A stretch of DNA of 39,798 nt from Candidatus Levyibacteriota bacterium (GCA_016182425.1 JACPGP010000033.1:1-39798), one strand, 5' to 3'. Counted from the first letter of the stretch, positions 5,663-33,672 are shown. Program-made: numbers and translations. Notes: generated by a model not told the origin, from the letters alone.

Positions 5663-5685
5663 ACCTGCCCGTCCGGCAGGCGGGT
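5663..5685. repeat. REP-like palindromic element, copy 1 (intergenic)
   Basis: acctgcccgtccggcaggcgggt has a CCTGCC/GGCAGG stem. Its ends match the elements at 24388, 26823 and 32770. Confidence 0.75.
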
Positions 5686-5701
5686 TTAAGATATATGATT
5701 T

Positions 5702-6937
5702 ATGGTTTTACCAAAAGAAATATTCACATCTTTTATCATCTTTTTTCTAGCCGTTAGCTTCTTTGGCGATATTGTATTTGCGCAAACACCCACATTAACT
5801 CCTACGCCAACTCCTGATACGAGCAAACAAGAGCAGGATCTGCAAAACAAAATAAATGAGTTGCAGGGAAAAATTAAAGAGTTACAAGGTCAGCAGCGCA
5901 CACTTTCTTCGCAAATTAGCGTGATGGATAATCAGATCCAACTAACTGAACTGCGTATAAATGCGACAAAACAGCAAATAATAGGTATTACTGGTGATAT
6001 TAAGACAGCAACTAAAAAAATTGAATCACTTGAAGAGGCGCTTGAGAAATTGACAAAGGTGCTGATAAATAGAATTGTTGAGACGTATGAGGTAGGGAGT
6101 ATTCAGCCATTTTATATACTGTTATCTACCACTAGCGCAACAGATTTTATTTCCAAGCTCAATTACCTGAAAATTGTTCAGGAGAACGACAAAAAACTTA
6201 TTTTTGCCACCCAACAAGCGAAAAATGATTACGTGACGCAAAAAAATATTTTTGAAGATAAAAAGAAAAAAGTTGAGTCGTTAAAGACACAGTTGGAGGG
6301 ATACACAGCGCAACTTGCTTCCGAGAAACAAGCCAAGCAGACACTTCTTGAGATCACCAAAAACGATGAGAAAAGATATCAGGATTTATTGGCGAGAGCG
6401 CGGGCCGAATTTGAGGCAATTAAAGGCATTATAGCTGGTCGCGGACAAGAGACAGAGATTGGCGCTGTCTCGGAGGGACAAACGATTGCATCAGTTATTG
6501 CAGGTTCTTCTTGTAATTCAGGCGGCGAACACTTACACTTTATTGTGAGTCGGAGCGGTACTACAGAAAATCCATTTAACTATCTAAAAGGTGCTGACTA
6601 TGAAAACTGTTCGGGTTCATCGTGTGGGAGCGGCGATGGTGATCCGTTTAATCCATCTGGAGGTTGGAATTGGCCTATTGATCCTAAAGTAAAATTGACC
6701 CAAGGGTATGGTAACACATGGGCAACGCTTTACAACCCGATTGTGAGACAGATATATAATTTCCACAATGGTATAGATATTATGGGATCTTCCTATAGTG
6801 TGAAAGCTGTGCAATCTGGTACACTGTACCAGGGAAGCTATACGGGGCTAAATGGTTGCAGATTGCGCTACGTTAGGGTTCGTCATAAGGATTCGGACTT
6901 AGATACCTTTTATCTTCATGTCAACTACAACTCTTAG
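5702..6937 (+). CDS. Secreted coiled-coil protein with an M23/LytM peptidase domain (EnvC/PcsB-like FtsEX partner)
   Basis: Signal peptide, long coiled coil, HLHF and HNGID motifs; directly downstream of ftsEX. Confidence 0.85.
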   Translation: MVLPKEIFTSFIIFFLAVSFFGDIVFAQTPTLTPTPTPDTSKQEQDLQNKINELQGKIKELQGQQRTLSSQISVMDNQIQLTELRINATKQQIIGITGDIKTATKKIESLEEALEKLTKVLINRIVETYEVGSIQPFYILLSTTSATDFISKLNYLKIVQENDKKLIFATQQAKNDYVTQKNIFEDKKKKVESLKTQLEGYTAQLASEKQAKQTLLEITKNDEKRYQDLLARARAEFEAIKGIIAGRGQETEIGAVSEGQTIASVIAGSSCNSGGEHLHFIVSRSGTTENPFNYLKGADYENCSGSSCGSGDGDPFNPSGGWNWPIDPKVKLTQGYGNTWATLYNPIVRQIYNFHNGIDIMGSSYSVKAVQSGTLYQGSYTGLNGCRLRYVRVRHKDSDLDTFYLHVNYNS

Positions 6938-7754
6938 AAAAATATTGTTTGTATTTATATCAGTTATTTTTTTTCTTTTCTATCCCCAATTGGTTTTTGC
7001 CGCAGATGTGGTCATTAATGAATTTTTAGCAAATCCCGCAAGTGGCGAAAAAGAGTGGGTAGAATTATATAATTTAAGTTCAGGCGATGTGAATCTTACT
7101 GGTTGGAAGCTTGTTGATGCTAAAAATAACACAAAATCTCTTGATAGTTTAGGAATTATTAGCGCAGGTGGATTTGTTGTTTACGAGACAGGCGAAGGAT
7201 GGCTAAATAATAATGATCCCGAAATAATCAATTTAAAAGATAATACTGGCACTGTTGATAGTTATTCTTATTCAACTAAACAAAATGAGAATATTACAAC
7301 TGGACGAGATCCAAATGGAACAGGAGATTTTACTATTTTAGCATCTGCAACAAAAGGATCTTCCAATAGTCCTGCATTGCCGACTACGACACCGACACAA
7401 GTTCCAACAGCAACTCCAACAAAAACTCCAACCCCAACACCAACCAGCAAGCCCACGGTAACGCCGAAACCAGTTGCAACGGCAACATCCTCTCCAGCAT
7501 CTTCTCAAACAAAAAGCGTTTCTCCAACTACAACAAAACCAATGGTTCAAGAAAACACCAAACCAGAAGATGAAGTTCCAACATCAATTTTGGGAGAAAT
7601 GGTAACAGCGTCTCCCTCGGCATCGCCGACATTAGTAGAAGCAAAAAAAGCATCGCTTTTTAGCTTCTCAAATCTTGCAATTGGTACTGGTTTTGTGTTT
7701 CTGGTTGCCTCTGGTATACTAGCGTTTCGAGAATGGAAAAAAAGATCTTTATAA
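6918..7754 (+). CDS. Lamin-tail-domain surface protein with Pro/Thr linker and C-terminal TM anchor
   Basis: VVINEFLANP...EWVELYN...VNLTGWKL LTD motif; PT-rich repeat; TM helix followed by a basic tail. Confidence 0.85.
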   Translation: MSTTTLRKILFVFISVIFFLFYPQLVFAADVVINEFLANPASGEKEWVELYNLSSGDVNLTGWKLVDAKNNTKSLDSLGIISAGGFVVYETGEGWLNNNDPEIINLKDNTGTVDSYSYSTKQNENITTGRDPNGTGDFTILASATKGSSNSPALPTTTPTQVPTATPTKTPTPTPTSKPTVTPKPVATATSSPASSQTKSVSPTTTKPMVQENTKPEDEVPTSILGEMVTASPSASPTLVEAKKASLFSFSNLAIGTGFVFLVASGILAFREWKKRSL

Positions 7755-8161
7755 CCCAAAGTGCTAATGAAACTCAAGAGATTGCCAAGTTGTTTGGTAA
7801 GACGTTTAAGGGTAGTATTATTGCTTTATATGGAGATTTAGGAGCAGGCAAGACAACGTTTGCGCAAGGATTAGCAAAAGGCTTGGGGATAAAAAAGAGA
7901 ATTATATCACCAACGTTTGTTATTGTAAGGCAATATAAAGCAGGTTTTAAGAATTTTTACCATATAGATTTGTATAGGATTGAAAGCCAAAAAGATATTG
8001 AAGGATTAGGAATTAAAGAGATATTAAAAGACCCCCAAAATATAATAGTTATTGAGTGGGTGGAGAAGATAAAAGATTTACTACCAAAGGAAAGAATTGA
8101 TATCTATTTTGAGTACCTAGATGAGAACAAGCGCAAAATTACCTATGAGTTTGGATATTGA
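7733..8161 (+). CDS. tsaE: tRNA t6A biosynthesis ATPase TsaE
   Basis: LYGDLGAGKTTF, SPTFVIV, YHIDLYR, VIEW. Confidence 0.96.
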   Translation: MEKKIFITQSANETQEIAKLFGKTFKGSIIALYGDLGAGKTTFAQGLAKGLGIKKRIISPTFVIVRQYKAGFKNFYHIDLYRIESQKDIEGLGIKEILKDPQNIIVIEWVEKIKDLLPKERIDIYFEYLDENKRKITYEFGY

Positions 8162-9035
8162 AAAAGCGATTAAAATTCTTAAAGTTGGTGGGATGGTAAT
8201 TTTTCCGACAGATACGGCTTTTGGTATTGGGTGCCGAGTAGATGATGAACAAGCAATAAAAGGGCTATTTGCAATTCGAAAGCGGCCAGAAACACAGCCA
8301 ATGTCCGTTCTTATTGACAGTGTTAAAATGGCAAAAAAATATGTTACTGCGATTCCAAAAGAAGTAATTGATAAACTTATTGAGCCATATTGGCCTGGCG
8401 CGTTAACGATTGTTTTGCAAAGTAGGACTGCCATGGTGCCAAGTCTTGTGCGGGGTGGCGGAAACACAGTTGGTATTCGAATTCCAAATCACAGTGTTGC
8501 ACGAGCGCTTATTCGCGGTGTTGGAGTTGGTATTTTGGGTCCATCGGCAAATTTTCATGGACAAAAAACGCCGTACAAATTTGAAGATCTTGATCCCAAA
8601 CTTCTGAAGCTTGTTGATTATGTGATGCCTGGAGAATGCGAGGTTGGAAATGTTTCGACAGTAATTGATTGTACGCAAAAGCCATGGAAGATATTGCGTC
8701 AGGGCGCAGTAAAATTAAAAAATAATATCGTTTTGATCATTGATACGTCAAGTAGCCACTATATTAGCGTTGGATTACGAATTGCTGGAAAAAAAGATTT
8801 AATAAAACAAAAAATAGACGCAAGAAGGGCACAGGTTGTACTTCCTATGGTAGATAAGCTGTTAAGGAAACATCAACTAAAATCAACAGACATTACTTCG
8901 ATAGAAGTACATACAGGCCCAGGCTCTTTTACTGGTCTTCGGGTTGGCATTTCTATTGCAAACGCGCTTGCGTTTATACTGAAAATTTCCTTAAACGGTA
9001 AGCCGGCTGGCGCATTTGTTGAGCCAAATTATTAG
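8145..9035 (+). CDS. tsaC: TsaC/YrdC threonylcarbamoyl-AMP synthase fused to the N-terminal half of TsaB
   Basis: FPTDTAFGI, YWPGALT, VGIRIP and PSAN (YrdC), then IIDTS...GPGSFTGLRVG (TsaB) from about 8721. Start moved to the ATG at 8145. Confidence 0.9.
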   Translation: MSLDIEKAIKILKVGGMVIFPTDTAFGIGCRVDDEQAIKGLFAIRKRPETQPMSVLIDSVKMAKKYVTAIPKEVIDKLIEPYWPGALTIVLQSRTAMVPSLVRGGGNTVGIRIPNHSVARALIRGVGVGILGPSANFHGQKTPYKFEDLDPKLLKLVDYVMPGECEVGNVSTVIDCTQKPWKILRQGAVKLKNNIVLIIDTSSSHYISVGLRIAGKKDLIKQKIDARRAQVVLPMVDKLLRKHQLKSTDITSIEVHTGPGSFTGLRVGISIANALAFILKISLNGKPAGAFVEPNY

Positions 9036-9044
9036 TGCTATACT
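9036..9044 (+). promoter_or_regulatory. Extended -10 promoter element
   Basis: TGCTATACT, 9 nt upstream of the ATG at 9054. Confidence 0.55.
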
Positions 9045-9053
9045 GGTTTAAGA

Positions 9054-9926
9054 ATGAAACGGTTCTTTCACCATTTTTTTTTGCCTCACGAGTCAAATAA
9101 TCATCGTCCTAAACTTTTGCATCATAAGACCATAGTCTTTTTTATCGCCTTTTTCCTCATAGGCCAAATTTTGCTTGAAAAGGCCAAAACAGACTTTTCT
9201 GATGTGCTTGGTGCAACCGCAGATATATCGGTAGAAAAGCTTCTTTTGTTGACAAATAGGGAAAGACAAAGTAAGGGACTTGGTCAACTCGTATTAAACG
9301 AACAGCTTTCCAAAGCAGCGTTTTTAAAGGGAACAAATATGTTAGAAAAAAACTACTGGGCGCACAATGCTCCAGACGGTACAACGCCATGGCATTTTAT
9401 TAAACAAACAGAGTACAACTACGTCTATGCAGGAGAGAACTTAGCGCGAGGTTTTACGCATTCGGAGGATATTGTTGACGCGTGGATGACCAGCCCAACC
9501 CATAGAGACAACATGTTTTCACCAAACTATCAGGATATTGGATTTGCCGTGCTGGAAGGAAAGCTGGTGGGAGAAAATACCACGCTTGTGGTTGAGATGT
9601 TTGGCAGCGCACAGCCGTTACAGCTTGCCAAGACGCCTGAGACTGTTTTGCAACCTGTTTCTCCACAGCTTGCAGGAGAAAGAAGCTTATCTTCTGAAAT
9701 AGCACCTTCTTATCTTAAGAATCAGCCGATTATCAATAGCATTTCTTTATCTTGGTACATTGGCATTGGTACGATCACGCTGTTTATTTTTATTCTTTCA
9801 ATAGATATGATTATTATAGAGCGAAGAAAAATTATTAGGTTTGTCGGCCATAATATAGATCATGTTGTCTTTCTTGGTTTGGTATTGTTATTTATTATTC
9901 TCGTGAACCACGGATATATCTTATGA
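9054..9926 (+). CDS. CAP (SCP/PR-1) domain membrane protein
   Basis: LTNRER, YWAH, AGENLARGF, WMTSPTHRDN motifs; N- and C-terminal TM helices. Confidence 0.9.
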   Translation: MKRFFHHFFLPHESNNHRPKLLHHKTIVFFIAFFLIGQILLEKAKTDFSDVLGATADISVEKLLLLTNRERQSKGLGQLVLNEQLSKAAFLKGTNMLEKNYWAHNAPDGTTPWHFIKQTEYNYVYAGENLARGFTHSEDIVDAWMTSPTHRDNMFSPNYQDIGFAVLEGKLVGENTTLVVEMFGSAQPLQLAKTPETVLQPVSPQLAGERSLSSEIAPSYLKNQPIINSISLSWYIGIGTITLFIFILSIDMIIIERRKIIRFVGHNIDHVVFLGLVLLFIILVNHGYIL

Positions 9927-10189
9927 TGAGCGAGTACATAAAGTCACACATAATATATTCCATTTTTCTTTTTATTGTCGTGGCACTTGGGATTGTGCTT
10001 GCTTTACAATTTACCAACAGCAAGCAGATGCAAATGCTTGTTGTTGTCATGACGACATTTTTTTATGTGGCCATTGGAATTATGCATCATAGAGAAAACC
10101 ACGATGTGACGGCAAAAATTGTGGTAGAATATATCTTAATTGGCAGTCTGGGTATGACGATTGCCTTTTTTTTCTTAGGAGCTTTGTAA
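9923..10189 (+). CDS. Small 3-TM hypothetical protein (loosely CyoD/CoxIV-like)
   Basis: 88 aa with three hydrophobic helices and an HH motif; translationally coupled to the upstream gene. Confidence 0.7.
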   Translation: MMSEYIKSHIIYSIFLFIVVALGIVLALQFTNSKQMQMLVVVMTTFFYVAIGIMHHRENHDVTAKIVVEYILIGSLGMTIAFFFLGAL

Positions 10190-10201
10190 GCCAAAGAGAC
10201 T

Positions 10202-10945
10202 ATGAAGGGGATTGTTTTAGCAGGAGGATTAGCAACAAGACTTCGGCCCTTAACGTGGGTAACGAATAAACATTTACTGCCAATTTATAATAAGCCCATG
10301 ATTTTTTTTCCGCTTGAAGTGATGGCAAAAGCAGGTATACGCGATGTTCTTATTACTACTTCTTCAGATCATGCTGGTCACTTTATAAATTTACTAAAAG
10401 GAGGAGAAGAATTTGGGTTAAAGCTGGAGTTTGCTGTGCAAGAGAATCTTAAAGGCGGTATTGCTGATGCCATTGCATTGGGAGAGGAGTTTGCAAAAGA
10501 CAGCGATGACATTCTTGTTATCTTAGGAGATAATATTTTTACTTTTAATCTTAAAGTTAGCATTGACAGATTTGAGAAGAGAGAAAAAGGAGCAGTTGTT
10601 TTCGGCGTTAAAATGGATACAGGGTCTAAACAATATGGCGTAATTGAGGTAGATATAGATGGAACGGTACTTTCTATCGAAGAAAAACCGGAACAACCAA
10701 AATCTAATATTGCCCAAGCAGGAGTTTACATGTACGACAGAAGAGTATTTTCTTTTATAAAACTACTTTCTCCGTCTAAAAGAGGAGAGCTTGAAGTAAC
10801 CGATCTAAATAATATGTATGTCAAAGAGGGAACGATGAGATGCGAAATGCTTGATTTTTGGATTGATGCGGGTACATCGTTTGACGAATTATTGCGAGCC
10901 AATAACCTTGTTGCAGAAAAGATAAAGAAAGGAGAATTACTATGA
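10202..10945 (+). CDS. rfbA: Glucose-1-phosphate thymidylyltransferase (short RmlA type)
   Basis: MKGIVLAGGLATRLRPLT, NKHLLPIYNKPMI, EEKP, RGELEVTD. Confidence 0.9.
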   Translation: MKGIVLAGGLATRLRPLTWVTNKHLLPIYNKPMIFFPLEVMAKAGIRDVLITTSSDHAGHFINLLKGGEEFGLKLEFAVQENLKGGIADAIALGEEFAKDSDDILVILGDNIFTFNLKVSIDRFEKREKGAVVFGVKMDTGSKQYGVIEVDIDGTVLSIEEKPEQPKSNIAQAGVYMYDRRVFSFIKLLSPSKRGELEVTDLNNMYVKEGTMRCEMLDFWIDAGTSFDELLRANNLVAEKIKKGELL

Positions 10946-11370
10946 GTTTGGCAAGACTTGAAGATACAAAAAAGGTAAGCACATTTGACCTTTCTGGTAC
11001 AGAAAATGGTTTTTTAACCGAACTTTATAAAGAAGGCAACAAAACTGTTGCATATCTTACTTCTGTAAAGCCAGGGATGTTTAAGGGATACCATCTTCAC
11101 AGAGTTCGGGCTGCCCGCTATGTTATCTTGAGAGGAAAAATGAAAATTGTATTGTATAAACCAGGCAGTGGTGAAAAAGAAGAATATGTACTTGATGCTA
11201 ATACTCCCCAACGTTTATTTATTCCAAAAGATATTGCAACAGGACTTTTGAATATTGGGACAGATGAAGCTTGGCTTATAAATTACCCAGATCCTCCCTA
11301 CGACCCAGATCTTAAAGATGAACAAGTTGAATATGCCTTAGAGGAATTAGAGCAGGGAATTGTTAAATAG
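10942..11370 (+). CDS. RmlC-like cupin (dTDP-keto-deoxysugar 3,5-epimerase or 3,4-ketoisomerase)
   Basis: KPGMFKGYHLH cupin motif; lies between rmlA and rmlB. Confidence 0.75.
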   Translation: MSLARLEDTKKVSTFDLSGTENGFLTELYKEGNKTVAYLTSVKPGMFKGYHLHRVRAARYVILRGKMKIVLYKPGSGEKEEYVLDANTPQRLFIPKDIATGLLNIGTDEAWLINYPDPPYDPDLKDEQVEYALEELEQGIVK

Positions 11371-11371
11371 T

Positions 11372-12379
11372 ATGAAATTACTAGTGACAGGAGGGGCAGG
11401 GTTTATTGGCTCCAATTTTATTCTCTACTGGCTCAAACATTATCCACAAGATTCGGTTGTTAATTTCGATAAACTAACCTACGCTGGGAATTTGGAGAAT
11501 CTTAAAGAGGTTGAGAATAATTCTCATTACAAATTTATCCAGGGAGATATTTGTGATGCAGAATCAGTAAATGTTGCAATGCAAAATATTGATGCTGTGG
11601 TGCATTTTGCAGCCGAGAGTCATGTTGACAGATCAATTCTTGAGCCAGCTCCTTTTGTTATGACAAATGTTGTTGGTACACAAGTGCTTTTAGATAGCGC
11701 TGTTAAAAATCGAGTAAAAAAATTACACCATGTGTCTACAGATGAGGTATTTGGAAGTCTATCTCTAGAGGATACGAATAAATTTAATGAACGAACACTT
11801 AATAACCCCAGAAGTCCTTATGCGGCAAGTAAAGCAGGATCAGATCATTTGGTGCGAGCGTACCATACCACATATGGTTTGCCTATTACAATTACCAACT
11901 GTTCAAACAATTTTGGCCCTTATCAGTTTCCAGAAAAACTTATTCCTTTGGCAATTACGAATCTTTTAGAGGGTAAAAAAGTGCCGGTATACGGAGATGG
12001 ACTATATGTACGAGATTGGCTATATGTTGAAGATCACTGTCGTGCGATTGATATAGTTTTACAAAAAGGACGAGTTGGCGAAACATACTGTGTTGGCGGT
12101 CTAACAGAGGATATTAATAACCTGGCAATTATAAAGAAAATTTTGTCTCTTCTTGGAAAAGGTGAAGAGTTCATAGAATTTGTCAAAGATAGACCAGGAC
12201 ACGATAGAAGGTATGCAATTGATTGGTCAAAGATAAAAAATGAGCTGGGATGGCAGCCTCGGCATTCGTTCGATGAGTATCTTTTGAAGACTGTGGAATG
12301 GTACAAAACTCACGAAAGTTGGTGGAAGCACGTTAAAAGTGGCGAGTATCAGAAGTACTACTCAAGACAGTATGATTGA
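11372..12379 (+). CDS. rfbB: dTDP-glucose 4,6-dehydratase
   Basis: LVTGGAGFIGSNF, DKLTYAGN, HFAAESHVDRSI, YAASK, DRPGHDRRYA. Start set at the ATG at 11372. Confidence 0.96.
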   Translation: MKLLVTGGAGFIGSNFILYWLKHYPQDSVVNFDKLTYAGNLENLKEVENNSHYKFIQGDICDAESVNVAMQNIDAVVHFAAESHVDRSILEPAPFVMTNVVGTQVLLDSAVKNRVKKLHHVSTDEVFGSLSLEDTNKFNERTLNNPRSPYAASKAGSDHLVRAYHTTYGLPITITNCSNNFGPYQFPEKLIPLAITNLLEGKKVPVYGDGLYVRDWLYVEDHCRAIDIVLQKGRVGETYCVGGLTEDINNLAIIKKILSLLGKGEEFIEFVKDRPGHDRRYAIDWSKIKNELGWQPRHSFDEYLLKTVEWYKTHESWWKHVKSGEYQKYYSRQYD

Positions 12380-12500: not shown

Positions 12501-12514
12501 CCAAAATTTTGCAA
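12476..12514 (-). repeat. Left 39-bp inverted repeat (site A)
   Basis: ttgtcaaattgcacgcattttttaaccaaaattttgcaa. Confidence 0.95.
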
Positions 12515-12585
12515 AAAATGAAAGATTAAAAGTAGATTTTAGATCACTATTATAGTCTAAAGTAGTAATTATACCAGTGAAAAAT

Positions 12586-12623: not shown

Positions 12624-12758
12624 CTATGTGTAAGGTTTATACGAAATATATAGATATGTTTAATAAAAACTGTTGATTTTAAGCCTAAGATTATACGTTT
12701 TATTAAAGGTCTTCTAAACTTTTTGATTAAAACTTACATCCGAGAGAGGCCATCGAAT

Positions 12759-13301
12759 ATGAGCAAGGAGATACCACAATCACAACCGGATTTACCACGC
12801 CCTGGCGATGGCCAGGGCTTCCAGGCGCCCAGCCCAGTCCGACCCTCAGAGCTGCACCCTTTCCAGGGGGGCATGCCCCCTATCCCGCCAGTGGGAGACC
12901 CGCCGACATGTACTCCCAATAGACCAGAGTTCCACCAGCCACGCAGTGAGCTGCCCCCACCAGAACCGCCATTACCCCACCCTGCACATGGTCTAGGCTA
13001 CTCCCCGACGGCCGAAGAAGTCGCCAGGCTGGAGGAGCTGGAGTTGCGGCGCAGAGCGCAAAACCGAGAGCGGCAACGCTGCTGGCGGCAACGTCACCCC
13101 GATAAACACAGCGAAAACAAGAGGAAGTGGCGCGAGCGCCATGCTGCTCAAATTGCTCAACACAGGGCTGCGTATGATAAGAAGTACAATAGCAAGCCCG
13201 AAGTGAAAGAGCGTAAGGCTAGGCAAGCCCGAGAGCGGTACGCACGGAAAAGCGCAGCCTCGGCCCACTCCTCACTCGAAAAAGTCTCGCCAGGGGCGTA
13301 A
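12759..13301 (+). CDS. Orphan protein: Pro-rich disordered N-terminus, Arg/Lys-rich helical C-terminus (possible nucleic-acid binder)
   Basis: GC-rich ORF; the ATG at 12759 has an upstream GAGAGAGG. C-terminal RRRAQNRERQRCWRQRHPDKHSENKRKWRERH. Confidence 0.65.
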   Translation: MSKEIPQSQPDLPRPGDGQGFQAPSPVRPSELHPFQGGMPPIPPVGDPPTCTPNRPEFHQPRSELPPPEPPLPHPAHGLGYSPTAEEVARLEELELRRRAQNRERQRCWRQRHPDKHSENKRKWRERHAAQIAQHRAAYDKKYNSKPEVKERKARQARERYARKSAASAHSSLEKVSPGA

Positions 13302-13396
13302 CGTGACGGCGGTTCCCGTGTTATATTCTATACACTGTAGTATAACTTAATACCGGGCAGACAACCGGAAACCCCCGCGCTTGTGTGTGTAAGATT

Positions 13397-13588
13397 TCAG
13401 TCAAAATTTGAGGTATTTTTCAATGTTTTGAGGCTAGAACATTGAAAGATAGAGTATAATAACATTGAAATCTTACACTCAAAGGGGATATTCGCCTCTG
13501 GCCAGTCGGTATCCTGTGGTAGATGACGGTAACGTCGCGCAAACATGTCCAGAGGGTATATAAAACTCTGTTCATAGGGGGTTGTCAT
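13397..13588 (-). CDS. Hypothetical small ORF or degraded gene
   Basis: 63-aa ORF starting 17 nt after the stop of the 159-aa ORF; weak SD; composition changes halfway along. Confidence 0.3.
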   Translation of the reverse strand: MTTPYEQSFIYPLDMFARRYRHLPQDTDWPEANIPFECKISMLLYSIFQCSSLKTLKNTSNFD

Positions 13589-13605
13589 CTGTTATCGTAT
13601 CCAAA

Positions 13606-14085
13606 TTACCGATGAGGGAGAAAGCCTCCGTCCCAGAGGAGTTCCGGTTGCAGGTTTCTGTCACCATTACCATATCGGAGCTTAATATCGTTCCTGGCAG
13701 CTTCGACCAAATCTACATCCTCCCCGTGGCAGCCCTGATAGAGGTCTACAAAGACCTTCTTCGGCCGGAGAGCTAGAGACAGTTCAACAAATATCGGACC
13801 GATAGCATCTGCCTTAGGGCTGCGGCGCTCCTGTGATGCAGGCGGACGCTCCTCCAGATAAATAACACGGCGTTCACGCCCTAACTCATCTTCGGCATCC
13901 AAGATACCCATCCACGAGTATCGTCCTGACGAATATACTGCGTAAAACAGGCCTTGCCAGAGGGCGTTAATACGCTCGTCCCGGCCGGGGAAGTTTGCTT
14001 TCAGAACATCGGCAAGGGGAGGAGGTGGTTTGATACCTATATTATTTTCGGTAGCAAACATGGGAAGTTCGTGACGCGGTACCAT
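13606..14085 (-). CDS. Orphan hypothetical protein
   Basis: 159-aa ORF with a GGAGGA SD 5 nt upstream and a canonical promoter. Confidence 0.7.
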   Translation of the reverse strand: MVPRHELPMFATENNIGIKPPPPLADVLKANFPGRDERINALWQGLFYAVYSSGRYSWMGILDAEDELGRERRVIYLEERPPASQERRSPKADAIGPIFVELSLALRPKKVFVDLYQGCHGEDVDLVEAARNDIKLRYGNGDRNLQPELLWDGGFLPHR

Positions 14086-14102
14086 TATATTCCTCCGTGT
14101 TG

Positions 14103-14131
14103 ATTATTTCATAGCTGTTGCTTGATGTCAA
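14103..14131 (-). promoter_or_regulatory. Sigma70-type promoter for the 13606-14085 ORF
   Basis: Minus strand TTGACA-17nt-AATAAT, then GGAGGA and ATG. The -35 lies inside the palindrome gcttga-tg-tcaagc (14120-14133). Confidence 0.65.
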
Positions 14132-14340
14132 GCCGGTTCGCAAGCCCACTCATAACACCAAGCGCGCTGGCCTATTACAGACAATCGGTCGGACGGAAGA
14201 CCCCTTAACGCTATCGACCACAACGGACTTGGAGGTTGCTTGCACACCATCTTGAATCGTTCGGCTCTGCCGGTGGCCCCTTGCTGTAGATGCTGGAGGC
14301 CCCGGAATAACCGAAACGCAGTCCACGGGAGGATGTCAAA

Positions 14341-14379
14341 TTGCAAAATTTTGGTTAAAAAATGCGTGCAATTTGACAA
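14341..14379 (+). repeat. Right 39-bp inverted repeat (site C)
   Basis: ttgcaaaattttggttaaaaaatgcgtgcaatttgacaa. It also forms a 12-bp IR (tgtcaaattgca 14334-14345 / tgcaatttgaca 14367-14378). Confidence 0.95.
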
Positions 14380-14449
14380 ATAATACTATTTTTGTCAGAA
14401 GCGTGAACTGTTACTGGCTTAGAGTGCCCTTCCGTTTTTCCTTATGGCA

Positions 14450-14458: not shown

Positions 14459-14467
14459 AAGATTCTT

Positions 14468-15757: not shown

Positions 15758-15763
15758 GCGTGT

Positions 15764-23005: not shown

Positions 23006-24383
23006 CCTTTCAAATTACCAATTTGGTTTCCATGACAAAATAAAACCAGTTTTCTCAACTGCTAAAGGGCTATCTGAAGATATAGTGAAAGAAATCTCAT
23101 GGATGAAAAAAGAGCCTGATTGGATGTGGGAAAAAAGGCTTGCTGCGTTAACTCTTTTTTACTCCAAAAAAATGCCAAACTGGGGAGGAGATTTGACTAA
23201 AATTAATTTTGACAATATTTATTACTACATTAAGCCTACAGATAAGCAAGGAAGAACATGGGAAGAGGTGCCAGCGGATATTAAAAATACATTTGACAAA
23301 ATCGGTGTTCCAGAAGCAGAGAAAAAATTTCTGAGTGGAGTTGGGGCTCAATATGATTCGGAAATGATCTATCATAGCATTTCTAAAATGCTTGAAAAAA
23401 AAGGGGTTATTTTTGTAGATACAGATACCGCAGTTAAAAAATACCCAGAATTAGTAAAACAGTATTTTGGGACAATTATTCCTGCCGCAGATAATAAATT
23501 CGCTGCGCTTAATACGGCCGTGTGGAGCGGAGGAAGCTTTATTTATGTACCAAAAGGCGTACGAGTTGACCTTCCTTTACAGGCATATTTTCGTATTAAT
23601 GCCAAGAACATGGGGCAGTTTGAGCGAACGCTGATTATTGCCGATGAAGGGTCATATGTTCATTACGTGGAGGGGTGCTCGGCCCCAATTTTTACTACTG
23701 ATTCGTTGCATAGTGCGGTGGTTGAAATTTTGGTCAAAAAAGGTGCTCGCGTTAGATACACAACAATTCAAAACTGGAGTAAAAATGTCTATAACTTAGT
23801 TACCAAGCGTATGTTTGTTGAAGAAGAAGGCTTCGGAGATTGGATAGACGGAAACCTTGGGAGTCAATTAACAATGAAATATCCTTCGATATATCTAAAG
23901 GGTCGAAAAGCACGGGGAGAAGTGTTATCGCTTGCTTTTGCTGGAAAAGATCAACACCAAGATGCTGGTGGAAAAGCAATTCATTTGGCTCCAGAGACAA
24001 GTTCGGTTATTACTTCAAAATCAATCAGTAAAGACGGCGGTCGAACTTCGTATCGTGGGCTTTTGAAAGTTGCAAAAGGAGCAGTCAATAGTAAATCAAC
24101 AGTTCGTTGTGATGCGCTTATTTTGGATGAGAAGAGCAGATCCGATACCTACCCAACAATGGAAATTAATGAAGAGCGAGTGACAATTGGACATGAGGCG
24201 TCAGTATCGCGAATTGGTGAGGAGCAGCTATTTTATTTTCAATCTCGAGGAATCCCGCAAACACAGGCAGAAGTAATGATTGTCAATGGGTTTGTGGAGC
24301 CAATTGTGCGTGAGTTGCCTATGGAGTATGCAGTAGAGCTAAACCGACTAATTCAATTAGAAATGGTGGGGTCAGTTGGATAA
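22992..24383 (+). CDS. sufB: Fe-S assembly protein SufB
   Basis: [45 protein letters not shown]. Start uncertain (22986 or 22992). Confidence 0.96.
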
Positions 24384-24387
24384 GTAA

Positions 24388-24429
24388 ACCTGCCCGCAAT
24401 CGCTAAAGCGACAGCTTTTGCAGGCGGGT
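24388..24429. repeat. REP-like palindromic element, copy 2 (sufB-sufD intergenic)
   Basis: acctgcccgc-aatcgctaaagcgacagctttt-gcaggcgggt; same ends as the 5663 copy. Confidence 0.75.
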
Positions 24430-24444
24430 GACAGGAGCAGTGGG

Positions 24445-25014
24445 ATGAGAAATATAAAAATAGTTGTTAAAAAAAATGAAGAAAAAGTGTTGCCGTTTGT
24501 GTGGGTTAATGGTGACGAAAAAGAAGTGGCTATAAATGCGCGTTTGGTTGGAGAAGGTGGGAATTTACGTATTGTTGGGGTGTTTCTAGGTAAAGATGCG
24601 AAATCAGTTGTGTTTAACACGCATGTTGTGCACGAAGCACCAAACACTAAAAGCCTAACAACTATTCGGGGCGTATTTAAAAATCATGCATCGTTTAACA
24701 ATGACGGTATGGTGCGCATTAACAAAGGGGCAAAAAACGCAGATGGATATTTTGCTTCAAAAATTCTTCTTTTTGATAATGCAAAAGGCAGAAGTGTTCC
24801 CTCCCTAGAGATTGATGAAAACGAGCTTAAAGCTGGTCATGCCTCAACGGTTGGCAGGCCAGATGAAAACCAATTGTTTTACCTTCGCAGTCGGGGATTA
24901 TCGGAGAAGGAGGCGGCAAATCTTATTGTTACAGGTTTTTTTGAGCCTGTAATAGCGTTACTTTCTAATGAGGATCAAAAAAACATTAGGAGGAAAATAC
25001 ATGAGATCTTATAA
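24445..25014 (+). CDS. sufD: Short SufD-like protein (C-terminal beta-helix only)
   Basis: H.APNTKS, SVPSLEIDENELKAGHASTVG, LFYLRSRGL. ATG at 24445 with an AGGAG SD. Confidence 0.85.
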   Translation: MRNIKIVVKKNEEKVLPFVWVNGDEKEVAINARLVGEGGNLRIVGVFLGKDAKSVVFNTHVVHEAPNTKSLTTIRGVFKNHASFNNDGMVRINKGAKNADGYFASKILLFDNAKGRSVPSLEIDENELKAGHASTVGRPDENQLFYLRSRGLSEKEAANLIVTGFFEPVIALLSNEDQKNIRRKIHEIL

Positions 25015-26582: not shown

Positions 26583-26832
26583 TCGGGAGTTATGTATTGG
26601 AGCAGCAAGTTGCGTTGCAGTTGCACCAAATACATTTGAATTAGATAACGAGGGGAAAGCTGTTATTAAGAAAAAAGACGGTACCATGACTTCTGATTTT
26701 GTCAACTACACAGATATTGGCGATAATGAGATAAATATCTCGAATGCCGCAAAATCATGTCCTGTTAATGCAATTATTATCGTTGAGGTAGATGATGCGG
26801 GGAACGAAATCCGCCAAGTCTGGCCCGCCTAG
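26560..26832 (+). CDS. Single-cluster ferredoxin, probably [3Fe-4S]
   Basis: CIGAASC...CPVNAI; the second Cys of CxxCxxC is replaced by Ala. Confidence 0.88.
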   Translation: MALKVKVDRELCIGAASCVAVAPNTFELDNEGKAVIKKKDGTMTSDFVNYTDIGDNEINISNAAKSCPVNAIIIVEVDDAGNEIRQVWPA

Positions 26833-26898
26833 TTTTCCCATTCGCCTTTTGGGGTACTATTCGTACACGGCTCATGGAGCAACTTTCGGCGGGCAAGC
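26823..26898. repeat. REP-like palindromic element, copy 3 (overlaps the ferredoxin stop)
   Basis: gcccgcct...ggcgggcaagc; the arms match the secD copy; long interior. Confidence 0.6.
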
Positions 26899-26939
26899 CA
26901 GAAGTATAAATCCTCCACTTTTTTTGATAAAATAACTCT

Positions 26940-28679: not shown

Positions 28680-29566
28680 CAACACTTAAAGATTTAGAGA
28701 TAACTTATGATAAGCCAAACTGGTGTCCGGGGTGTGGCGATATAGGCGTTTGGGTATCGTTGAAAAATGCCATTGTGCAATTAAATCTTAATCCTTGGGA
28801 AGTGGTACTTGTGTCTGGCATTGGGTGCTCGGGAAAACTTCCCTACTGGGTCAAGACTTATGGATTTAATGGTTTACATGGAAGGCCAATGCCGCCTGCA
28901 GAAGCAATTTCCCTTGTCAATCACGGATTAACAGTTATTGTGATTGGCGGTGATGGTGATCAGTATGGAGAAGGCATGGGTCATTTAGTACATGCAGCGC
29001 GTCGAAATGTAAACCTAACACTTCTTGTTCACAATAACCAAATTTATGGTTTAACAACCGGTCAGTATTCACCTACCACCGATATTGGCGAAAAGAATAA
29101 AGCAACGCCTGTACCAACTGTTGAATCACCAGTAAATCCAATTTCTGTGGCGCTTGCTGCTGGCGCAACATTTGTTGGAAGGGGTTTTGCAGGAGACAAC
29201 AAACAAGAAACAGAGCTTTTAGTTTCGGCAATAAAACACAAGGGGTTTTCGATAATTGACACTATGCAGCCATGTGTGACGTTTAACCATAAAAATACCT
29301 TTGCATGGTTTTATGAACGAGTATACAAACTTGAGGCAGAAGGGCATGATCCAAAAGACAAAGCAAAAGCCTTCGCAAGAGCCGAGGAGTGGCCATTGAA
29401 ACGTATGTTAAAAGAAGGGGAGAAAGAGCGTATTGCAACAGGAATTTTTTATAGAGAAGAAAGACCGACATGGCAAGATGGTATTCCCCAAATTGGGGAA
29501 ACCCCACTTGTTAAGCAGCCAATTGATAACGTTGATATTACTCCAATTTTAGATGAGTTAGTCTAA
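28676..29566 (+). CDS. korB: 2-oxoacid:ferredoxin oxidoreductase beta subunit (TPP-binding)
   Basis: WCPGCG, SGIGCSG, HGR, GGDGD, NNQIYGLTTGQYSPT. Confidence 0.93.
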   Translation: MTTLKDLEITYDKPNWCPGCGDIGVWVSLKNAIVQLNLNPWEVVLVSGIGCSGKLPYWVKTYGFNGLHGRPMPPAEAISLVNHGLTVIVIGGDGDQYGEGMGHLVHAARRNVNLTLLVHNNQIYGLTTGQYSPTTDIGEKNKATPVPTVESPVNPISVALAAGATFVGRGFAGDNKQETELLVSAIKHKGFSIIDTMQPCVTFNHKNTFAWFYERVYKLEAEGHDPKDKAKAFARAEEWPLKRMLKEGEKERIATGIFYREERPTWQDGIPQIGETPLVKQPIDNVDITPILDELV

Positions 29567-29571
29567 GAAGC

Positions 29572-29605
29572 AAAACCCCCACGGTGCGAACCTTTTGGGG
29601 GTTTT
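29572..29605. terminator. Likely bidirectional intrinsic terminator
   Basis: AAAACCCCC...GGGGGTTTT 9-bp stem with an inner GGT-GCGA-ACC hairpin, between convergent genes. Confidence 0.7.
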
Positions 29606-29635
29606 CTTGTGTTCGTAAATACTAGAAAGGTTTAC

Positions 29636-29776
29636 TTATCCACCAATCTTGTACATGCCAGTTCCACAGACTGGACATTTACCTTTGAGTGCTGGTTTGC
29701 CATTCTTCATGGTAACTTTCTGAGCATTTGGATCATCTCTCTTGCTGCGACATTTTACACAATACATCGATGCCAT
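29636..29776 (-). CDS. 46-aa zinc-ribbon protein (DUF5679-like), absent from the ORF track
   Basis: MASMYCVKCRSKRDDPNAQKVTMKNGKPALKGKCPVCGTGMYKIGG*; strong GGGGGTGA SD. Confidence 0.85.
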   Translation of the reverse strand: MASMYCVKCRSKRDDPNAQKVTMKNGKPALKGKCPVCGTGMYKIGG

Positions 29777-29798
29777 ATTTTTTATTCACCCCCTTTCG

Positions 29799-30074
29799 TT
29801 AGTAAGCTAGATTGGGAATCTTAATGATATGAGTTTTTAAGAAATAAAACAGGAAAAATTCACCTACAATAATACCTGTAGTCAGGATGGAGGTTTTTAT
29901 AAGATCATACATAAGATATGAGTATGGGCGACTTGTTGTTATTGCCATCGATTGTTGGGGCACATATGTCGAAGTGCTTAAAGTAGAAAAGGTTTGAGCC
30001 TGCTTTTGGAACTGTAGTTTTCGATGCAAATCCGCCAGCATTTTTTCTTTACGAGTTTTTTTGTGCTTATTCAT
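29799..30074 (-). CDS. Hypothetical protein, basic N-terminus and C-terminal TM helix
   Basis: 91-aa ORF downstream of a divergent promoter. Confidence 0.65.
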   Translation of the reverse strand: MNKHKKTRKEKMLADLHRKLQFQKQAQTFSTLSTSTYVPQQSMAITTSRPYSYLMYDLIKTSILTTGIIVGEFFLFYFLKTHIIKIPNLAY

Positions 30075-30096
30075 AGAATAGGCAAAGATTACACTA

Positions 30097-30115
30097 TTGA
30101 CAGAAGTATTGTCAA
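30097..30115. promoter_or_regulatory. Back-to-back -35 boxes of divergent promoters
   Basis: TTGACA-N7-TGTCAA. Each -35 has a TAnnnT hexamer at 18 nt (TAATAT on +, TAATCT on -). Confidence 0.55.
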
Positions 30116-30136
30116 GAGGCTAATATAAGAGTAGAT

Positions 30137-30604
30137 ATGGTATTCAGTTTCGAGCTGGTGGGGCTTATTGTTAGTATTCTTTGGTTAATTTTTCTTACCA
30201 CACTTTTATGGCAACTTTCTTCTCACTATAATAATTTAACCCGGGGCATAAGCCAGAAAACACTCAAATCAATTCTAGATCATGTTTTAACAGGAATAGA
30301 AGCAGCGGATAAAAGCATAGTGTCTTTGAAAGCCAGATGTGATAAGCTAGAAAAAGATGGATTGTTTCATATTCAAAAAATTGGACTCTTGCGATTTAAC
30401 CCTTTCAAAGATACAGGAGGAGATCAAAGTTTTATTCTTTCTCTTATAGACGCGAATGATACTGGAATTATTATTACCGGTCTATATTCTCGCTCCGGCA
30501 CACGCTGGTATGCCAAAAAAGTGGAAAATGGAAAAGGGATAGAACACGAGTTGTCAGATGAGGAAAAAAAGGCGATAAAAGAGGCAAAAAGCAGCAATGG
30601 ATAA
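30137..30604 (+). CDS. DUF4446-family protein
   Basis: N-terminal TM helix; QKIGLLRFNPFKDTGGDQSFILSLID...GIIITGLYSR. Confidence 0.85.
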   Translation: MVFSFELVGLIVSILWLIFLTTLLWQLSSHYNNLTRGISQKTLKSILDHVLTGIEAADKSIVSLKARCDKLEKDGLFHIQKIGLLRFNPFKDTGGDQSFILSLIDANDTGIIITGLYSRSGTRWYAKKVENGKGIEHELSDEEKKAIKEAKSSNG

Positions 30605-31760
30605 AAAAATTATAAAACTTATCATCATCGGGCTTGCCATCTACTTATTTTCAGCAGGAGCATCGTATCTGTTTTTTGCTCGTACTGCGGCATTTAATGA
30701 ACTTATTACTCCTCAGGTTCCGACGACCAAAAATGGAGAAGGTGCCGCATTTGATGATACACTTCCCAAAACGGAAGAGTGCCCAATAAATGGCGTTTTG
30801 TATTCGACAAAACAGCGCGAATGGTGGGAAAAGCACAGGCCGCTTACTGTTATGATTGAAAATCACGAAGATTCTCGGCCTCAGTCAGGGCTTTTGTCTG
30901 CTGATGTTGTTTACGAAGCTGTCGCCGAAGGGGGTATTACGCGTTTTTTGGCAGTTTATTACTGTCAGGATGCCAATCCAATCGGACCGGTACGATCGGC
31001 CAGGACCTATTTTATTGACTTTGCCTCCGAGTATGGAGATGCTCCGCTTTACGCTCACGTGGGAGGAGCAAACGCGCCAGGACCCGCCGACGCGCTATCG
31101 CAGTTGTCGGACTATGGATGGATCGGCTATAATGACTTAAACCAGTTTTCTATTGGTTTCCCCACATTCTGGCGGGATTACGATCGGTTAGGTCACACTA
31201 CAGCCACAGAACATACCATGTATTCGACAACCACCAAATTGTGGGATTTCGCCAAAAAATCGCGAGCACTAGCAAATGTTGACAAAGAAGGAAATCCCTG
31301 GGATAAAAAATTTGTGAAGTATTCCTTTAGGGACGACCAGGCAACAGGCATGGCGAATCAGACAATTCATCTTGAGTTTTGGAAGGATTACAAAGATTAT
31401 TTTGTGGATTGGATATACGATAAAGCAACCAATAGCTATAAAAGAAGCAATGGTGGTGCTTACCATATTGACAACAATACAAAAAAGCAGTTGACAACCA
31501 AAAATATTGTTGTATTATTCATGCAGGAGAGCAATGCCCTTGATGGCTATGAGGATAATATACATCTTCTTTACAGGACAAAGGGTACGGGTAAAGCAAA
31601 CATTTTTATGGACGGAAAACAAATTGTCGGTACATGGAGAAAAGACGGACGCACAGGAAGAACGCTTTTGTTTGATAACGCCGGTTCGCCGATAAAGCTT
31701 AATAGAGGAACCATTTGGTTTGAAATCCTGCCCACAACTGGAGTAGTAACATTAAAATAG
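30597..31760 (+). CDS. DUF3048-family membrane-anchored protein
   Basis: RPL.VMIENH..SRPQSGL..ADVVYE..AEGGITRF, GPVRSARTYF. Confidence 0.88.
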   Translation: MDKKIIKLIIIGLAIYLFSAGASYLFFARTAAFNELITPQVPTTKNGEGAAFDDTLPKTEECPINGVLYSTKQREWWEKHRPLTVMIENHEDSRPQSGLLSADVVYEAVAEGGITRFLAVYYCQDANPIGPVRSARTYFIDFASEYGDAPLYAHVGGANAPGPADALSQLSDYGWIGYNDLNQFSIGFPTFWRDYDRLGHTTATEHTMYSTTTKLWDFAKKSRALANVDKEGNPWDKKFVKYSFRDDQATGMANQTIHLEFWKDYKDYFVDWIYDKATNSYKRSNGGAYHIDNNTKKQLTTKNIVVLFMQESNALDGYEDNIHLLYRTKGTGKANIFMDGKQIVGTWRKDGRTGRTLLFDNAGSPIKLNRGTIWFEILPTTGVVTLK

Positions 31761-31770
31761 AAAGGCAGGT

Positions 31771-32346
31771 ATGTTAGGAGATTTAATCACATCAAAATCG
31801 CGGGTGACGTTAATTTCGGTTTTTCTTTTGTCTCCCTTCGATATGTTTCACGTACGGGAACTCGTTCGTCGAACAGGCGATGAGATTAATGCGGTGCGGC
31901 GGGAGCTTGCTTTTTTGGAGAAAAAGGGTATCTTAGTAAGAGAACCGCGCGCGAATAGAATCTATTATTCGTTAGCAAAAAATTATCCGTTTTATTATGA
32001 TTTGTTGGCGATTGGTGCCAAGATCATGGGTTTGGGATCTGAAATCTTAAAGAATCGGACAAAGCTTGGGAGAGTGAAATATGCCATGTTTTCGGGGGGA
32101 TTCGTGCGAAAAGTCAAAAAAGAGCAGGAGAGCGTTGACCTTTTAATAGTAGGTACGGTTGTCCTACCGGAACTTGCGCTTTTGGTGAAAGACGAAGAGA
32201 AGCGGATAGGCCGAGAAATCAACTATACGGTTATGTCGGAAGATGAATTTCATTTTAGGAAAAAGCGTAGCGATCCATTTATTCTTTCGATCCTTCATGG
32301 ATCGAGATTAATGCTGATTGGGGATGAGCAACAAATGTTGTCATAA
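31771..32346 (+). CDS. Winged-helix protein with a degenerate nucleotidyltransferase-like C-domain
   Basis: SKSRV.L, HVRELVR, INAVRREL..L..KGIL (wHTH); SVDLLIVG...GREINYTVMS..EF. Confidence 0.75.
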   Translation: MLGDLITSKSRVTLISVFLLSPFDMFHVRELVRRTGDEINAVRRELAFLEKKGILVREPRANRIYYSLAKNYPFYYDLLAIGAKIMGLGSEILKNRTKLGRVKYAMFSGGFVRKVKKEQESVDLLIVGTVVLPELALLVKDEEKRIGREINYTVMSEDEFHFRKKRSDPFILSILHGSRLMLIGDEQQMLS

Positions 32347-32352
32347 TGCTTC

Positions 32353-33672
32353 ATGAAAAATCCACGAGTTCTTTTTTGGCTCATTATTATTTTAACCATT
32401 ATTGCTATTTTTATCGATTTACCATTTCTTTCTTCACCAAACTTTTTTATTGGATCCTTTCATGTACAGAGAGATTTTTCCATACGGCGCGGATTAGATT
32501 TGGCTGGCGGGGTAAGTATTATCTATAAAGCGCATGTTGACAGTCTGCCATCCGATCAACAAAAAGATGCGCTTATTGCGGCAAAAACTGTTATTGAGCG
32601 CCGAATTAACTTCTTTGGTGTCTCCGAACCGGTCGTTCAGACAGCAACAGTTAATAATGAGGAAAGAATTATTGTGGAGATTCCAGGAATTTCTGATGTT
32701 GATTCGGCAATTAATCTTATTGGCACCACAGCTCAATTAACATTTTGGGAAGAAGGTGCGACCGAATCAGCCCGCCTGCAGTCGCCTGAGGCGACAGCTG
32801 ATGGCGGGCAGGCTAAACTTGCCACCCCTTCGGCATTACCTGTTGGTTTTACTCAAAAAACAGACTTAAGCGGAAAAGATTTACAAAAAGCCGGAGTAAC
32901 ATTTAATCCCAATACAGGTGTACCAGAGGTATCACTTGTTTTCAACAGTGATGGAGGAAAAAAATTTGCCGATATTACAACCAGAAACGTGGGAAAGCCA
33001 GTAGCGATAGTTTTGGATAATCAAATTATCTCGGCCCCGAAAGTAAATACGGCAATTACAGATGGTAATGCTGTTATTACCGGTGGGTTTACCACAGAAC
33101 AGGCAAAAAATTTAAGTATTCAATTAAACGCTGGTGCGCTTCCTGTTACGCTTTCTATCCTTGAACAAAAAACAGTTGGTCCAACACTAGGAGAGACCTC
33201 GCTTAAGACGAGTCTTTTTGCAGGAGGAATTGGTTTTATGGTGATAGTTTTGTTTATGAGTATTTTGTATGGAAGATTTGGCATGATTGCAAGTGCGGCG
33301 CTTGTTTTGTATACACTTTTTGTTTTAGCTATTTTTAAGGCAATTCCAATTACTTTAACGCTTGCTGGAATTGCAGGGTTTATCTTATCTATTGGTATGG
33401 CCGTTGATGCCAATATTCTTATTTTTGAACGAATGAGGGAGGAGTTAAGACACGGTAGAAATCTGCCTGTTTCCTTAGAGCTTGGGTTTGTCAGAGCATG
33501 GAGTTCGATTCGTGACTCCAATATTTCAAGTCTTATTACCAGTTTTATTTTGTACTATTTTGGGACAGGAATTGTTAAAAATTTTGCTCTCACTTTGGCT
33601 ATTGGTGTTTTGGTTTCGATGTTTTCGGCAATTGTTGTTACAAGAACATTTTTAAGACTAGTTTATAAGTAA
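32353..33672 (+). CDS. secD: Protein translocase subunit SecD
   Basis: GLDLAGG, IERRIN.FGVSEP, IIVEIPG, LNAGALP, GMAVDANILIFER. Confidence 0.96.
   Translation: MKNPRVLFWLIIILTIIAIFIDLPFLSSPNFFIGSFHVQRDFSIRRGLDLAGGVSIIYKAHVDSLPSDQQKDALIAAKTVIERRINFFGVSEPVVQTATVNNEERIIVEIPGISDVDSAINLIGTTAQLTFWEEGATESARLQSPEATADGGQAKLATPSALPVGFTQKTDLSGKDLQKAGVTFNPNTGVPEVSLVFNSDGGKKFADITTRNVGKPVAIVLDNQIISAPKVNTAITDGNAVITGGFTTEQAKNLSIQLNAGALPVTLSILEQKTVGPTLGETSLKTSLFAGGIGFMVIVLFMSILYGRFGMIASAALVLYTLFVLAIFKAIPITLTLAGIAGFILSIGMAVDANILIFERMREELRHGRNLPVSLELGFVRAWSSIRDSNISSLITSFILYYFGTGIVKNFALTLAIGVLVSMFSAIVVTRTFLRLVYK
32770..32813. repeat. REP-like palindromic element, copy 4 (inside the secD coding frame)
   Basis: gcccgcctgca-gtcgcc-tga-ggcgac-agctgat-ggcgggcaggc; nested stems; encodes ARLQSPEATADGGQA. 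Confidence 0.75.

Follow-up and report, generated by a model that had tools for sequence, protein, structure and literature searches.

A small, probably mobile GC-rich palindrome that appears to bring spare copies to the genes it interrupts in ultra-small bacteria

Introduction

In this article, I discuss a family of small palindromes recognized on a 39,798-nucleotide contig of Candidatus Levyibacteriota bacterium (GCA_016182425.1, JACPGP010000033.1:1-39798; this whole stretch is called the window below), which is contig C11 of a source genome (G000) of 797 kb, 39.6% GC and 38 contigs; other G numbers denote relatives. The four copies in the window are lineage-specific, precise insertions, and they probably represent a small, non-coding, GC-rich mobile element that acts at the level of DNA, resembles repetitive extragenic palindromic (REP) sequences and Rickettsia palindromic elements (RPE), and can carry cassettes that both break and replace a resident gene. 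The family is scattered through ultra-small bacteria of the candidate phyla radiation (CPR) and some other phyla. Insertions into tRNA genes and gene 3' ends come with a spare of what they interrupt, the interrupted original being left as a relic that has sometimes decayed.

Empty sites and in-frame copies

The bounds of each copy were fixed via empty sites in relatives (Table 1). The 14 codons that copy 4 contributes are missing from every one of the 29 aligned SecD orthologues, and deleting exactly 32771-32812 restores the SecD reading ..TESAKLA.., to be compared with ..SAKIA.. or ..SAKLA.. in relatives. The FtsX spacer, where copy 1 starts 10 nt past the FtsX stop codon, is free of the element in nine of nine relatives, and the ferredoxin and SufB-SufD sites are empty in 4/4 and 3/3 relatives, respectively. 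The junctions are flush, without target duplication (tRNA-Val, tRNA-Gln, SecD and ferredoxin; no window junction has one), and no conserved target tetranucleotide was seen at them. The first-pass annotation of the window had described four copies of a palindrome with fixed arms and swappable interiors, two of them intergenic, one supplying the last codons of a gene and one lying inside a gene. All four were found again in these contexts, copy 3 providing the stop of a ferredoxin gene and the two codons before it, and a relaxed scan of the window gave no further copies. The arms proposed as common to all are indeed shared as CCCGCCTGC...(G)CGGGCAGG, save for copy 3, whose ends are degenerate. 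The same annotation had named a lack of further genomic copies, together with the same sequence at orthologous loci, as what would speak for conserved ancestral sequence; since there are many more copies and all four orthologous sites are empty, that possibility falls away.

Copies inside open reading frames (ORFs) keep the frame open in 20 of the 20 examined, with effective lengths that read as multiples of three, and intergenic copies come in any length (32, 34, 37, 38, 40, 41, 43 nt, etc.). The in-gene locations include SecD, NusG, a membrane protein and L1, besides tRNA genes, and genus G018 has, in a different protein but in the same frame, a copy that differs from copy 4 by 1 nt. From their sequences, the in-gene copies thus appear to be carried as translated loop inserts. 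The SecD of G006 (locus L050) has an unrelated 12-residue insert, VTSKSDLGML-F, in the same loop as window position 32771, which suggests that this loop tolerates insertions. In the SecD of several relatives (G008, G013, G017), the match is split near residue 27 by about 25 extra codons within one open frame, a lineage-specific insert at another SecD site.

Replaced gene ends

At the 3' end of genes, the element does not merely interrupt. All ferredoxin orthologues compared are element-free and end in ...VWPEA and a stop (G008, G011, G020) or ...VWPA and a stop (G026), and copy 3 was inserted exactly between TGG (W) and CCA (P), so that it supplies P, A and the stop TAG (26830-26832), with the old end ccagaagtataa still present directly after it. 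SufB of the relatives G011, G026 and G020 ends in EMTGAVG or EMTGSVG followed by a stop; in G011 this stop overlaps the SufD start (ATGA, ACGGGGGCGGTGGGATGA) and in G026 and G020 a short spacer lies between the two genes. SufB of the source genome has a new end before the element and its old end after it, the old end aligning with the SufB/SufD overlap of relatives. The same arrangement was found in an FtsX-type permease of G015, where ...GWY is followed by PARKASNMQPIEALRYE and a stop inside the element and the old PARRAANLQPIEALRYE and its stop directly after, and in topA of G014, which also has a new gene end and a displaced old one. A long target duplication was considered as the source of these doubled ends and rejected: the copies are only about 60-70% identical, and the new copy of the permease and of topA lies between the element ends.

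Nested tRNA genes

The interior can be as large as a whole tRNA. Two copies in the source genome carry a complete tRNA and interrupt a tRNA with the identical anticodon, one in the D arm of tRNA-Val(CAC) (contig C24) and the other in the anticodon loop of tRNA-Gln(TTG) (contig C7), and removal of the element leaves a perfect outer tRNA-Val and tRNA-Gln. With 24 more from about 20 genomes, the sample of tRNA-bearing copies is 26, every one of which lies inside a tRNA that agrees with its cargo in anticodon and sense, the orientation of the element ends relative to the tRNA being evenly split (13:13). Insertion falls in the anticodon loop (34/35 to 37/38), at the border of the D loop and stem (..GGTAGA|, ..GGCAGA|) or in the T loop. 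In these 26 nests the inner tRNAs are always canonical, and the outer ones range from perfect to decayed, with U55 of the T loop changed to G (TGCGAGT), a broken T-stem, or small and large deletions. Some outer tRNAs hold up to three further elements; such multiply interrupted cases were judged by reading the flanks, as brute-force hairpin removal gave spurious solutions. Short copies without cargo were found in tRNA sequence only in relics that have a working copy beside or inside them.

The tRNA-Gln nests of G018 and the source genome share one insertion point and an inner tRNA identical at 72 of 72 positions. Compensatory changes in the acceptor and T stems set their outer tRNAs apart, and the flanks of the two nests cannot be aligned; the outer tRNA-Gln of G018 later gained another element and lost its anticodon stem. 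An identical inner tRNA within differing outer tRNAs and unalignable flanks points to recent, independent and site-faithful insertion, that is, to a cassette probably younger than both genera that would have entered each at the same point of the cognate tRNA. Inner tRNA-Ala(CGC) in three families has a common odd D arm unlike that of the outer tRNAs, and one of the three sits at a different site.

Elements, and tRNA nests above all, are often found no more than about 250 nt from a contig end (G174:C24:23, G263:C21:78, G313:C118:167, G287:C20:20), which suggests that they break the assembly of metagenome-assembled genomes (MAGs) and that tRNA genes are under-counted there. The source genome yields only 33 tRNA matches.

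Element anatomy

The element ends, 5'-CCCGCCTGC...(G)CGGGCAGG-3', are invariant and the interior is exchangeable, from 4 nt to an entire tRNA, much as fixed arms with swappable interiors had been proposed. Elements measure 21-135 nt, have no ORF inside and also sit in the loops of other elements. Their termini are inverted repeats of 9 nt with two fixed mismatches (CCCGCCTGC against CCTGCCCGC from the other end). Each copy is predicted to fold as one long imperfect hairpin of -10 to -28 kcal/mol as RNA, the copies of 21-42 nt as a single hairpin, and copy 1 as a 4-nt tag with a perfect 6-bp stem, CCTGCC/GGCAGG. Two pairing registers are open to the ends, either of which leaves a 4-nt single-stranded tag: in one, CCCGCC pairs with GGCGGG and leaves the 3' tail CAGG; in the other, CCTGC pairs with GCAGG and leaves the 5' tail CCCG. 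The tags are therefore CCCG or CAGG (CCTG or CGGG on the other strand), and the GTAG/CGTC head is not present. In an alignment of 16 42-mers from different genomes, compensatory changes exceed those in shuffled and slid controls for both registers, a result that is supportive only, because the 16 sequences are related. The two folds of the 42-nt form are mutually exclusive, each with compensatory changes, as if both end registers were used.

On the plus strand, copies 2 and 4 both contain A(A/G)TCGC(C)-loop-(G)GCGACAGCT within ends of opposite orientation, which bears out the flipped interior module described in the first reading of the window. The arrangement of copy 2 is a stable 40-nt subfamily with other members in G151, G269 and G275, which belong to other genera.

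Distribution and chance controls

The pattern CCCGCCT N0-120 CGGGCA has nine matches in the 797-kb source genome and 0-2 in each of twenty third-order Markov shuffles, and when one mismatch is allowed, additional copies appear in NusG (contig C8), next to tRNA-Asp (C16) and within a relic of tRNA-Lys (C36). The full ends CCCGCCTGC...CGGGCAGG are present in 19 of 41 close relatives, 119 of 301 genomes of the class and 84 of 401 genomes of the phylum, and a reversed control pattern gave 0, 0 and 2 matches in these three sets against hundreds of real ones. The family is dispersed. Copy number is low, with at most 24 exact-end copies per genome and none in most. Whole short forms are identical between families (the 21-mer, a 36-mer CCCGCCTGCAACGCTTTGCGTAGCAATGCGGGCAGG, a 33-mer and 42-mers), and the 21-mer of copy 1 recurs unchanged in many CPR genomes and in Bacteroidota records. 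In a scan of all species, high-GC chance matches dominate among the matches listed and only low-GC records with identical short forms were used; among these, the same 21-, 30- and 33-mers occur in Bacteroidota, Desulfobacteraceae, Chloroflexia, Omnitrophota and Scalindua, and some of the low-GC copies outside the CPR lie in frame inside long ORFs.

Two individual copies may be mentioned here. One identical 21-mer, in a Saprospiraceae MAG (L193:1284-1304), lies amid a (CATAACT)n heptanucleotide tandem repeat. A 42-nt copy at C19:31894-31935 ends 8 nt upstream of the ATG of a gene, so that its end, ..GGGCAGG, falls where a ribosome-binding site would be expected.

Search for a mobilizing enzyme

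The window was correctly said to encode no REP-associated tyrosine transposase (RAYT), and five RAYT-like HUH ORFs are found on other contigs of the source genome (Table 1); relatives have up to nine such genes each. Each of the 25 RAYT-like genes examined (five in the source genome and 20 in G008, G018, G027 and G029) is flanked by a different hairpin of its own, examples from the source genome being CCACCTTAGAGGTGG, TCACCTGGGAGGTGA and CCGATCCCGTATCGG, and its RAYT-like ORFs with their private hairpins look like several separate REP-RAYT pairs in a 0.8-Mb genome. The check for an associated HUH/RAYT nuclease proposed in the first reading gave none among these genes, as none of the 25 carries the element ends. 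Small GIY-YIG genes are multi-copy in the class. Pairs of ends spaced 121-500 nt apart occur in five of 201 genomes, and all are tRNA nests or neighboring copies, none with a gene.

At C36:17100-17617, small GIY-YIG ORFs alternate with copies of tRNA-Lys(TTT). Decay is evident in the first of these tRNA copies, whose acceptor stem holds a variant palindrome, CCCGCCCGC...GCGGGCGGG, and the second GIY-YIG ORF has an in-frame TAA.

Table 1. Element copies, gene ends and RAYT-like ORFs. Positions without a contig name refer to the window; RAYT-like ORFs encode 206-230 aa with the motifs YHxxNRG, PNHxHLL and YIHxNP.
Feature	Position	Strand	Sequence or length	Context
Copy 1	5664-5684	-	21 nt, CCCGCCTGCCGGACGGGCAGG = CCCGCCTGC-CGGA-CGGGCAGG	FtsX / M23-peptidase spacer
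Copy 2	24389-24428	-	40 nt, minus-strand CCCGCCTGCAAAAGCTGTCGCTTTAGCGATTGCGGGCAGG	SufB/SufD spacer
Copy 3	26824-26897	+	74 nt, degenerate ends CCCGCCTAG...GGCGGGCAAG	4Fe-4S ferredoxin 3' end
Copy 4	32771-32812	+	42 nt	14 in-frame codons in a loop of the SecD P1 domain, reading RLQSPEATADGGQ
New SufB end	24363-24388	+	ATG GTG GGG TCA GTT GGA TAA (MVGSVG, stop) and 5-nt spacer GTAAA	Directly before copy 2
Displaced old SufB end	24429-24448	+	tgACAGGAGCAGTGGGATGA (TGAVG, stop)	Now SufD leader and Shine-Dalgarno region; SufD ATG at 24445
Displaced old ferredoxin end	26898-26909	+	CCAGAAGTATAA (PEV, stop)	Matches ccagaagcataa (PEA, stop), directly after the W codon in G011 and G008
RAYT-like HUH ORF	C2:8363-8983			
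RAYT-like HUH ORF	C8:4-696			
RAYT-like HUH ORF	C29:7309-7986			
RAYT-like HUH ORF	C37:14529-15197			
RAYT-like HUH ORF	C34	-		

Other features of the window

The window genes include FtsX, a PcsB-like protein, SufBD and SecDF, and these show the window to be bacterial. Positions 12700-14400 form a high-GC island of 55-66% against 39.6% for the genome and look foreign; the three ORFs of the island (12723-13301 on the plus strand, 13606-14085 and 14128-14379 on the minus strand) have no Pfam match and the region no Rfam match.

Discussion

The best reading, in my view, is that this element belongs to a known kind, the miniature palindromic mobile element, and that its main addition is an interior that can hold a spare of the cognate gene. 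It enters DNA precisely at its ends, leaving the target unduplicated, and would move at the level of DNA, probably in the form of a folded single strand on which a structure-specific enzyme acts in trans; candidates for this enzyme are RAYT-like HUH proteins or small GIY-YIG nucleases, present in several copies in these genomes. Insertion may favor the unpaired loops of structured DNA, such as the anticodon, D and T loops of tRNA or the loops of other elements. Cassettes carrying a spare would then spread between lineages into the cognate gene, probably guided in a homing-like manner by the homologous tRNA halves or gene sequence around or inside them (recombination following DNA uptake would be one way), since other insertions are not viable.

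The comparison with REP sequences and Rickettsia palindromic elements made in the first-pass annotation holds in part: the tag-and-hairpin form and the in-frame gene copies support it, whereas the REP head, a cognate RAYT and an extragenic location are missing. Like the REP/REPIN-RAYT system, the element is a short imperfect palindrome with a single-stranded tag, dispersed, non-coding and free of target duplication, in genomes that also contain HUH Y1 genes. It differs from that system in having no GTAG/CGTC head, a low copy number, copies in genes and tRNA genes, no RAYT flanked by its ends, ends identical across phyla, and tRNA or gene-end cargo. The Rickettsia elements are also in-frame palindromes in protein genes, where they form apparently tolerated peptide loops, and are found in RNA genes and spacers too, but they measure 100-150 bp, are confined to one genus and have neither such invariant short ends nor a known spare-copy cargo. 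GC-rich hairpin mini-elements have been described as the GC clusters of yeast mitochondria and as elements of fungal and sponge mitochondria (e.g., PMC2800124). These too invade AT-rich genomes, genes and RNA genes, nest in each other and have no known mobilizing enzyme; however, they are organellar, have other sequences, often duplicate a short target and are without cargo. Integrative elements of tRNA genes and gene 3' ends, such as tyrosine-recombinase islands and prophages, likewise supply a replacement, leave the old part as a relic and favor anticodon and T loops, but they are kilobases in size, have an integrase and att sites and replace only the 3' part of a gene, whereas the element discussed here has 20-120 nt, no gene, and a complete tRNA between hairpin ends. 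The bulge-helix-bulge (BHB) tRNA introns of archaea, including the mobile ones of Thermoproteales, resemble it as short helix-flanked inserts at varied positions in many tRNAs whose removal restores the gene; the element lacks the BHB, the splicing endonuclease and, mostly, RtcB, also occurs in frame in proteins, and is associated with outer tRNAs that decay. Of the features of a miniature inverted-repeat transposable element, it has the terminal inverted repeats but neither a target site duplication nor a parent insertion sequence with the same ends. Full-text literature searches returned no description of the motif, of CPR tRNA introns or of nested tRNAs in bacteria.

Could these elements simply be the repeats of an ordinary CPR REP-RAYT system, moved by one of the HUH Y1 proteins of the source genome? 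The minimal form, a 4-nt tag with a hairpin, is REP-like, the lack of target duplication is what HUH enzymes would give, the five RAYT-like ORFs are at hand, and RAYT-like copy number rises weakly with element number, but I regard this as unlikely, since the hairpins that flank all 25 RAYT-like genes never have CCCGCCTGC ends, six of the 19 element-bearing relatives have no Y1_Tnp match, and neither the GTAG/CGTC head nor a target tetranucleotide is seen; copies are also found within genes and tRNAs. Co-variation of REPs and their RAYT is the norm, and the ends found here are identical across phyla. Much less probable again is a new protein-dependent bacterial intron, whose end helix would be recognized in RNA and cut flush and whose exons would be rejoined, yielding both an outer and an inner tRNA as well as insert-free mRNAs. 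Such an intron would explain why insertion is flush and duplication-free, why excision would restore a perfect tRNA-Val and tRNA-Gln, why the insertion points are in tRNA loops and mostly in the anticodon loop, as for archaeal introns, and why many outer tRNAs are intact; the 9-bp end helix, as read from the sequence, would on either strand have a pyrimidine-purine mismatch at position 3 and another at position 7 (C.A and U.G). RtcB, however, is missing from the source genome, present in just 30 of 301 class genomes and missing also from genomes with nested tRNAs, and the tRNA splicing endonuclease (tRNA_int_endo) was detected in all four archaeal controls and in 0/41 relatives, which makes RNA splicing unlikely. 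The predicted folds contain no bulge-helix-bulge: their helices are continuous, end flush or in a 4-nt tail, and have no 3-nt bulges spaced 4 bp apart. Nor would an intron need to keep the reading frame, as the in-gene copies do, or to bring its own stop codon and spare end, and it would not be expected to lie in either orientation to the transcript or in outer tRNAs that have lost universal features or large parts.

Least probable of all is that the elements are host-functional hairpins (terminators, RNA stabilizers, uptake or binding sites) recruited and kept by selection rather than selfishly mobile. Ends that are invariant across the phylum and beyond, compensatory changes that keep the interior hairpins paired, and the placement of some copies at the end of a gene or shortly before a start codon are all consistent with it; yet none of the four window copies is kept at the orthologous site, copy number is low with many genomes having none, and copies interrupt tRNA genes and coding sequence. 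Copies 1, 2 and 3 received no terminator-like call, and with no run of T the copies are not intrinsic terminators; the window has no match to an Rfam family. Of the two possibilities raised at the outset, a selfish or a regulatory palindrome, the dispersal looks selfish, and the regulatory half is not supported by copies that are neither terminator-like nor conserved at orthologous sites.

The mobile-element reading has its own difficulties, and these should be weighed together. No mobilizing enzyme is linked to the element, no RAYT-like gene among the 25 is flanked by its ends, and an autonomous parent with these ends was not found, end pairs up to 3 kb apart in the source genome being chance pairs only. 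Element number correlates with the copy number of RAYT-like genes (rho 0.36, p 0.02) and of GIY-YIG genes (rho 0.33), correlations that are weak, could reflect general mobile-DNA load and are therefore not taken to identify the enzyme. A selfish repeat would not usually keep exact 9-nt ends across phyla, and these could point to a host function. Selection alone does not explain why 0/26 tRNA cassettes lie outside a cognate tRNA, so that a putative targeting step is needed. Several outer tRNAs are still perfect, among them the tRNA-Val and tRNA-Gln of the source genome, so function of the outer gene may persist, and the spare end of SufB lies outside the element ends, which a simple model of cargo between the ends does not predict.

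It is possible, although I would lean against it at present, that these sequences form a new class across phyla: gene-less units with hairpin ends, moved by a structure-specific nuclease (candidates being a small Slx1-like GIY-YIG or a RAYT-like HUH enzyme), inserting into loops and carrying cassettes that home into the cognate tRNA or gene end. Under such a scheme, the cassette would become indispensable once it has broken the resident copy, an addiction strategy made from a tRNA gene alone.

Returning to the miniature mobile element as the preferred reading, a gene-less element of 20-120 nt would have spread over a very large part of the bacterial tree and would be reshaping essential genes in the smallest genomes, adding peptide loops to SecD, NusG and L1 and replacing gene ends. 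It would also be a source of broken-looking "Russian-doll" tRNA genes, which tRNA finders overlook or count wrongly, and of breaks in CPR MAG assemblies. The pairing of cargo and target in 26 of 26 cases calls for a targeting mechanism of a kind not known among miniature elements, and the invariant ends point to a widely shared enzyme that recognizes DNA hairpins. If this reading is correct, foreign tRNA genes would take the place of resident ones with the same identity, and horizontal tRNA replacement would have a hidden route.

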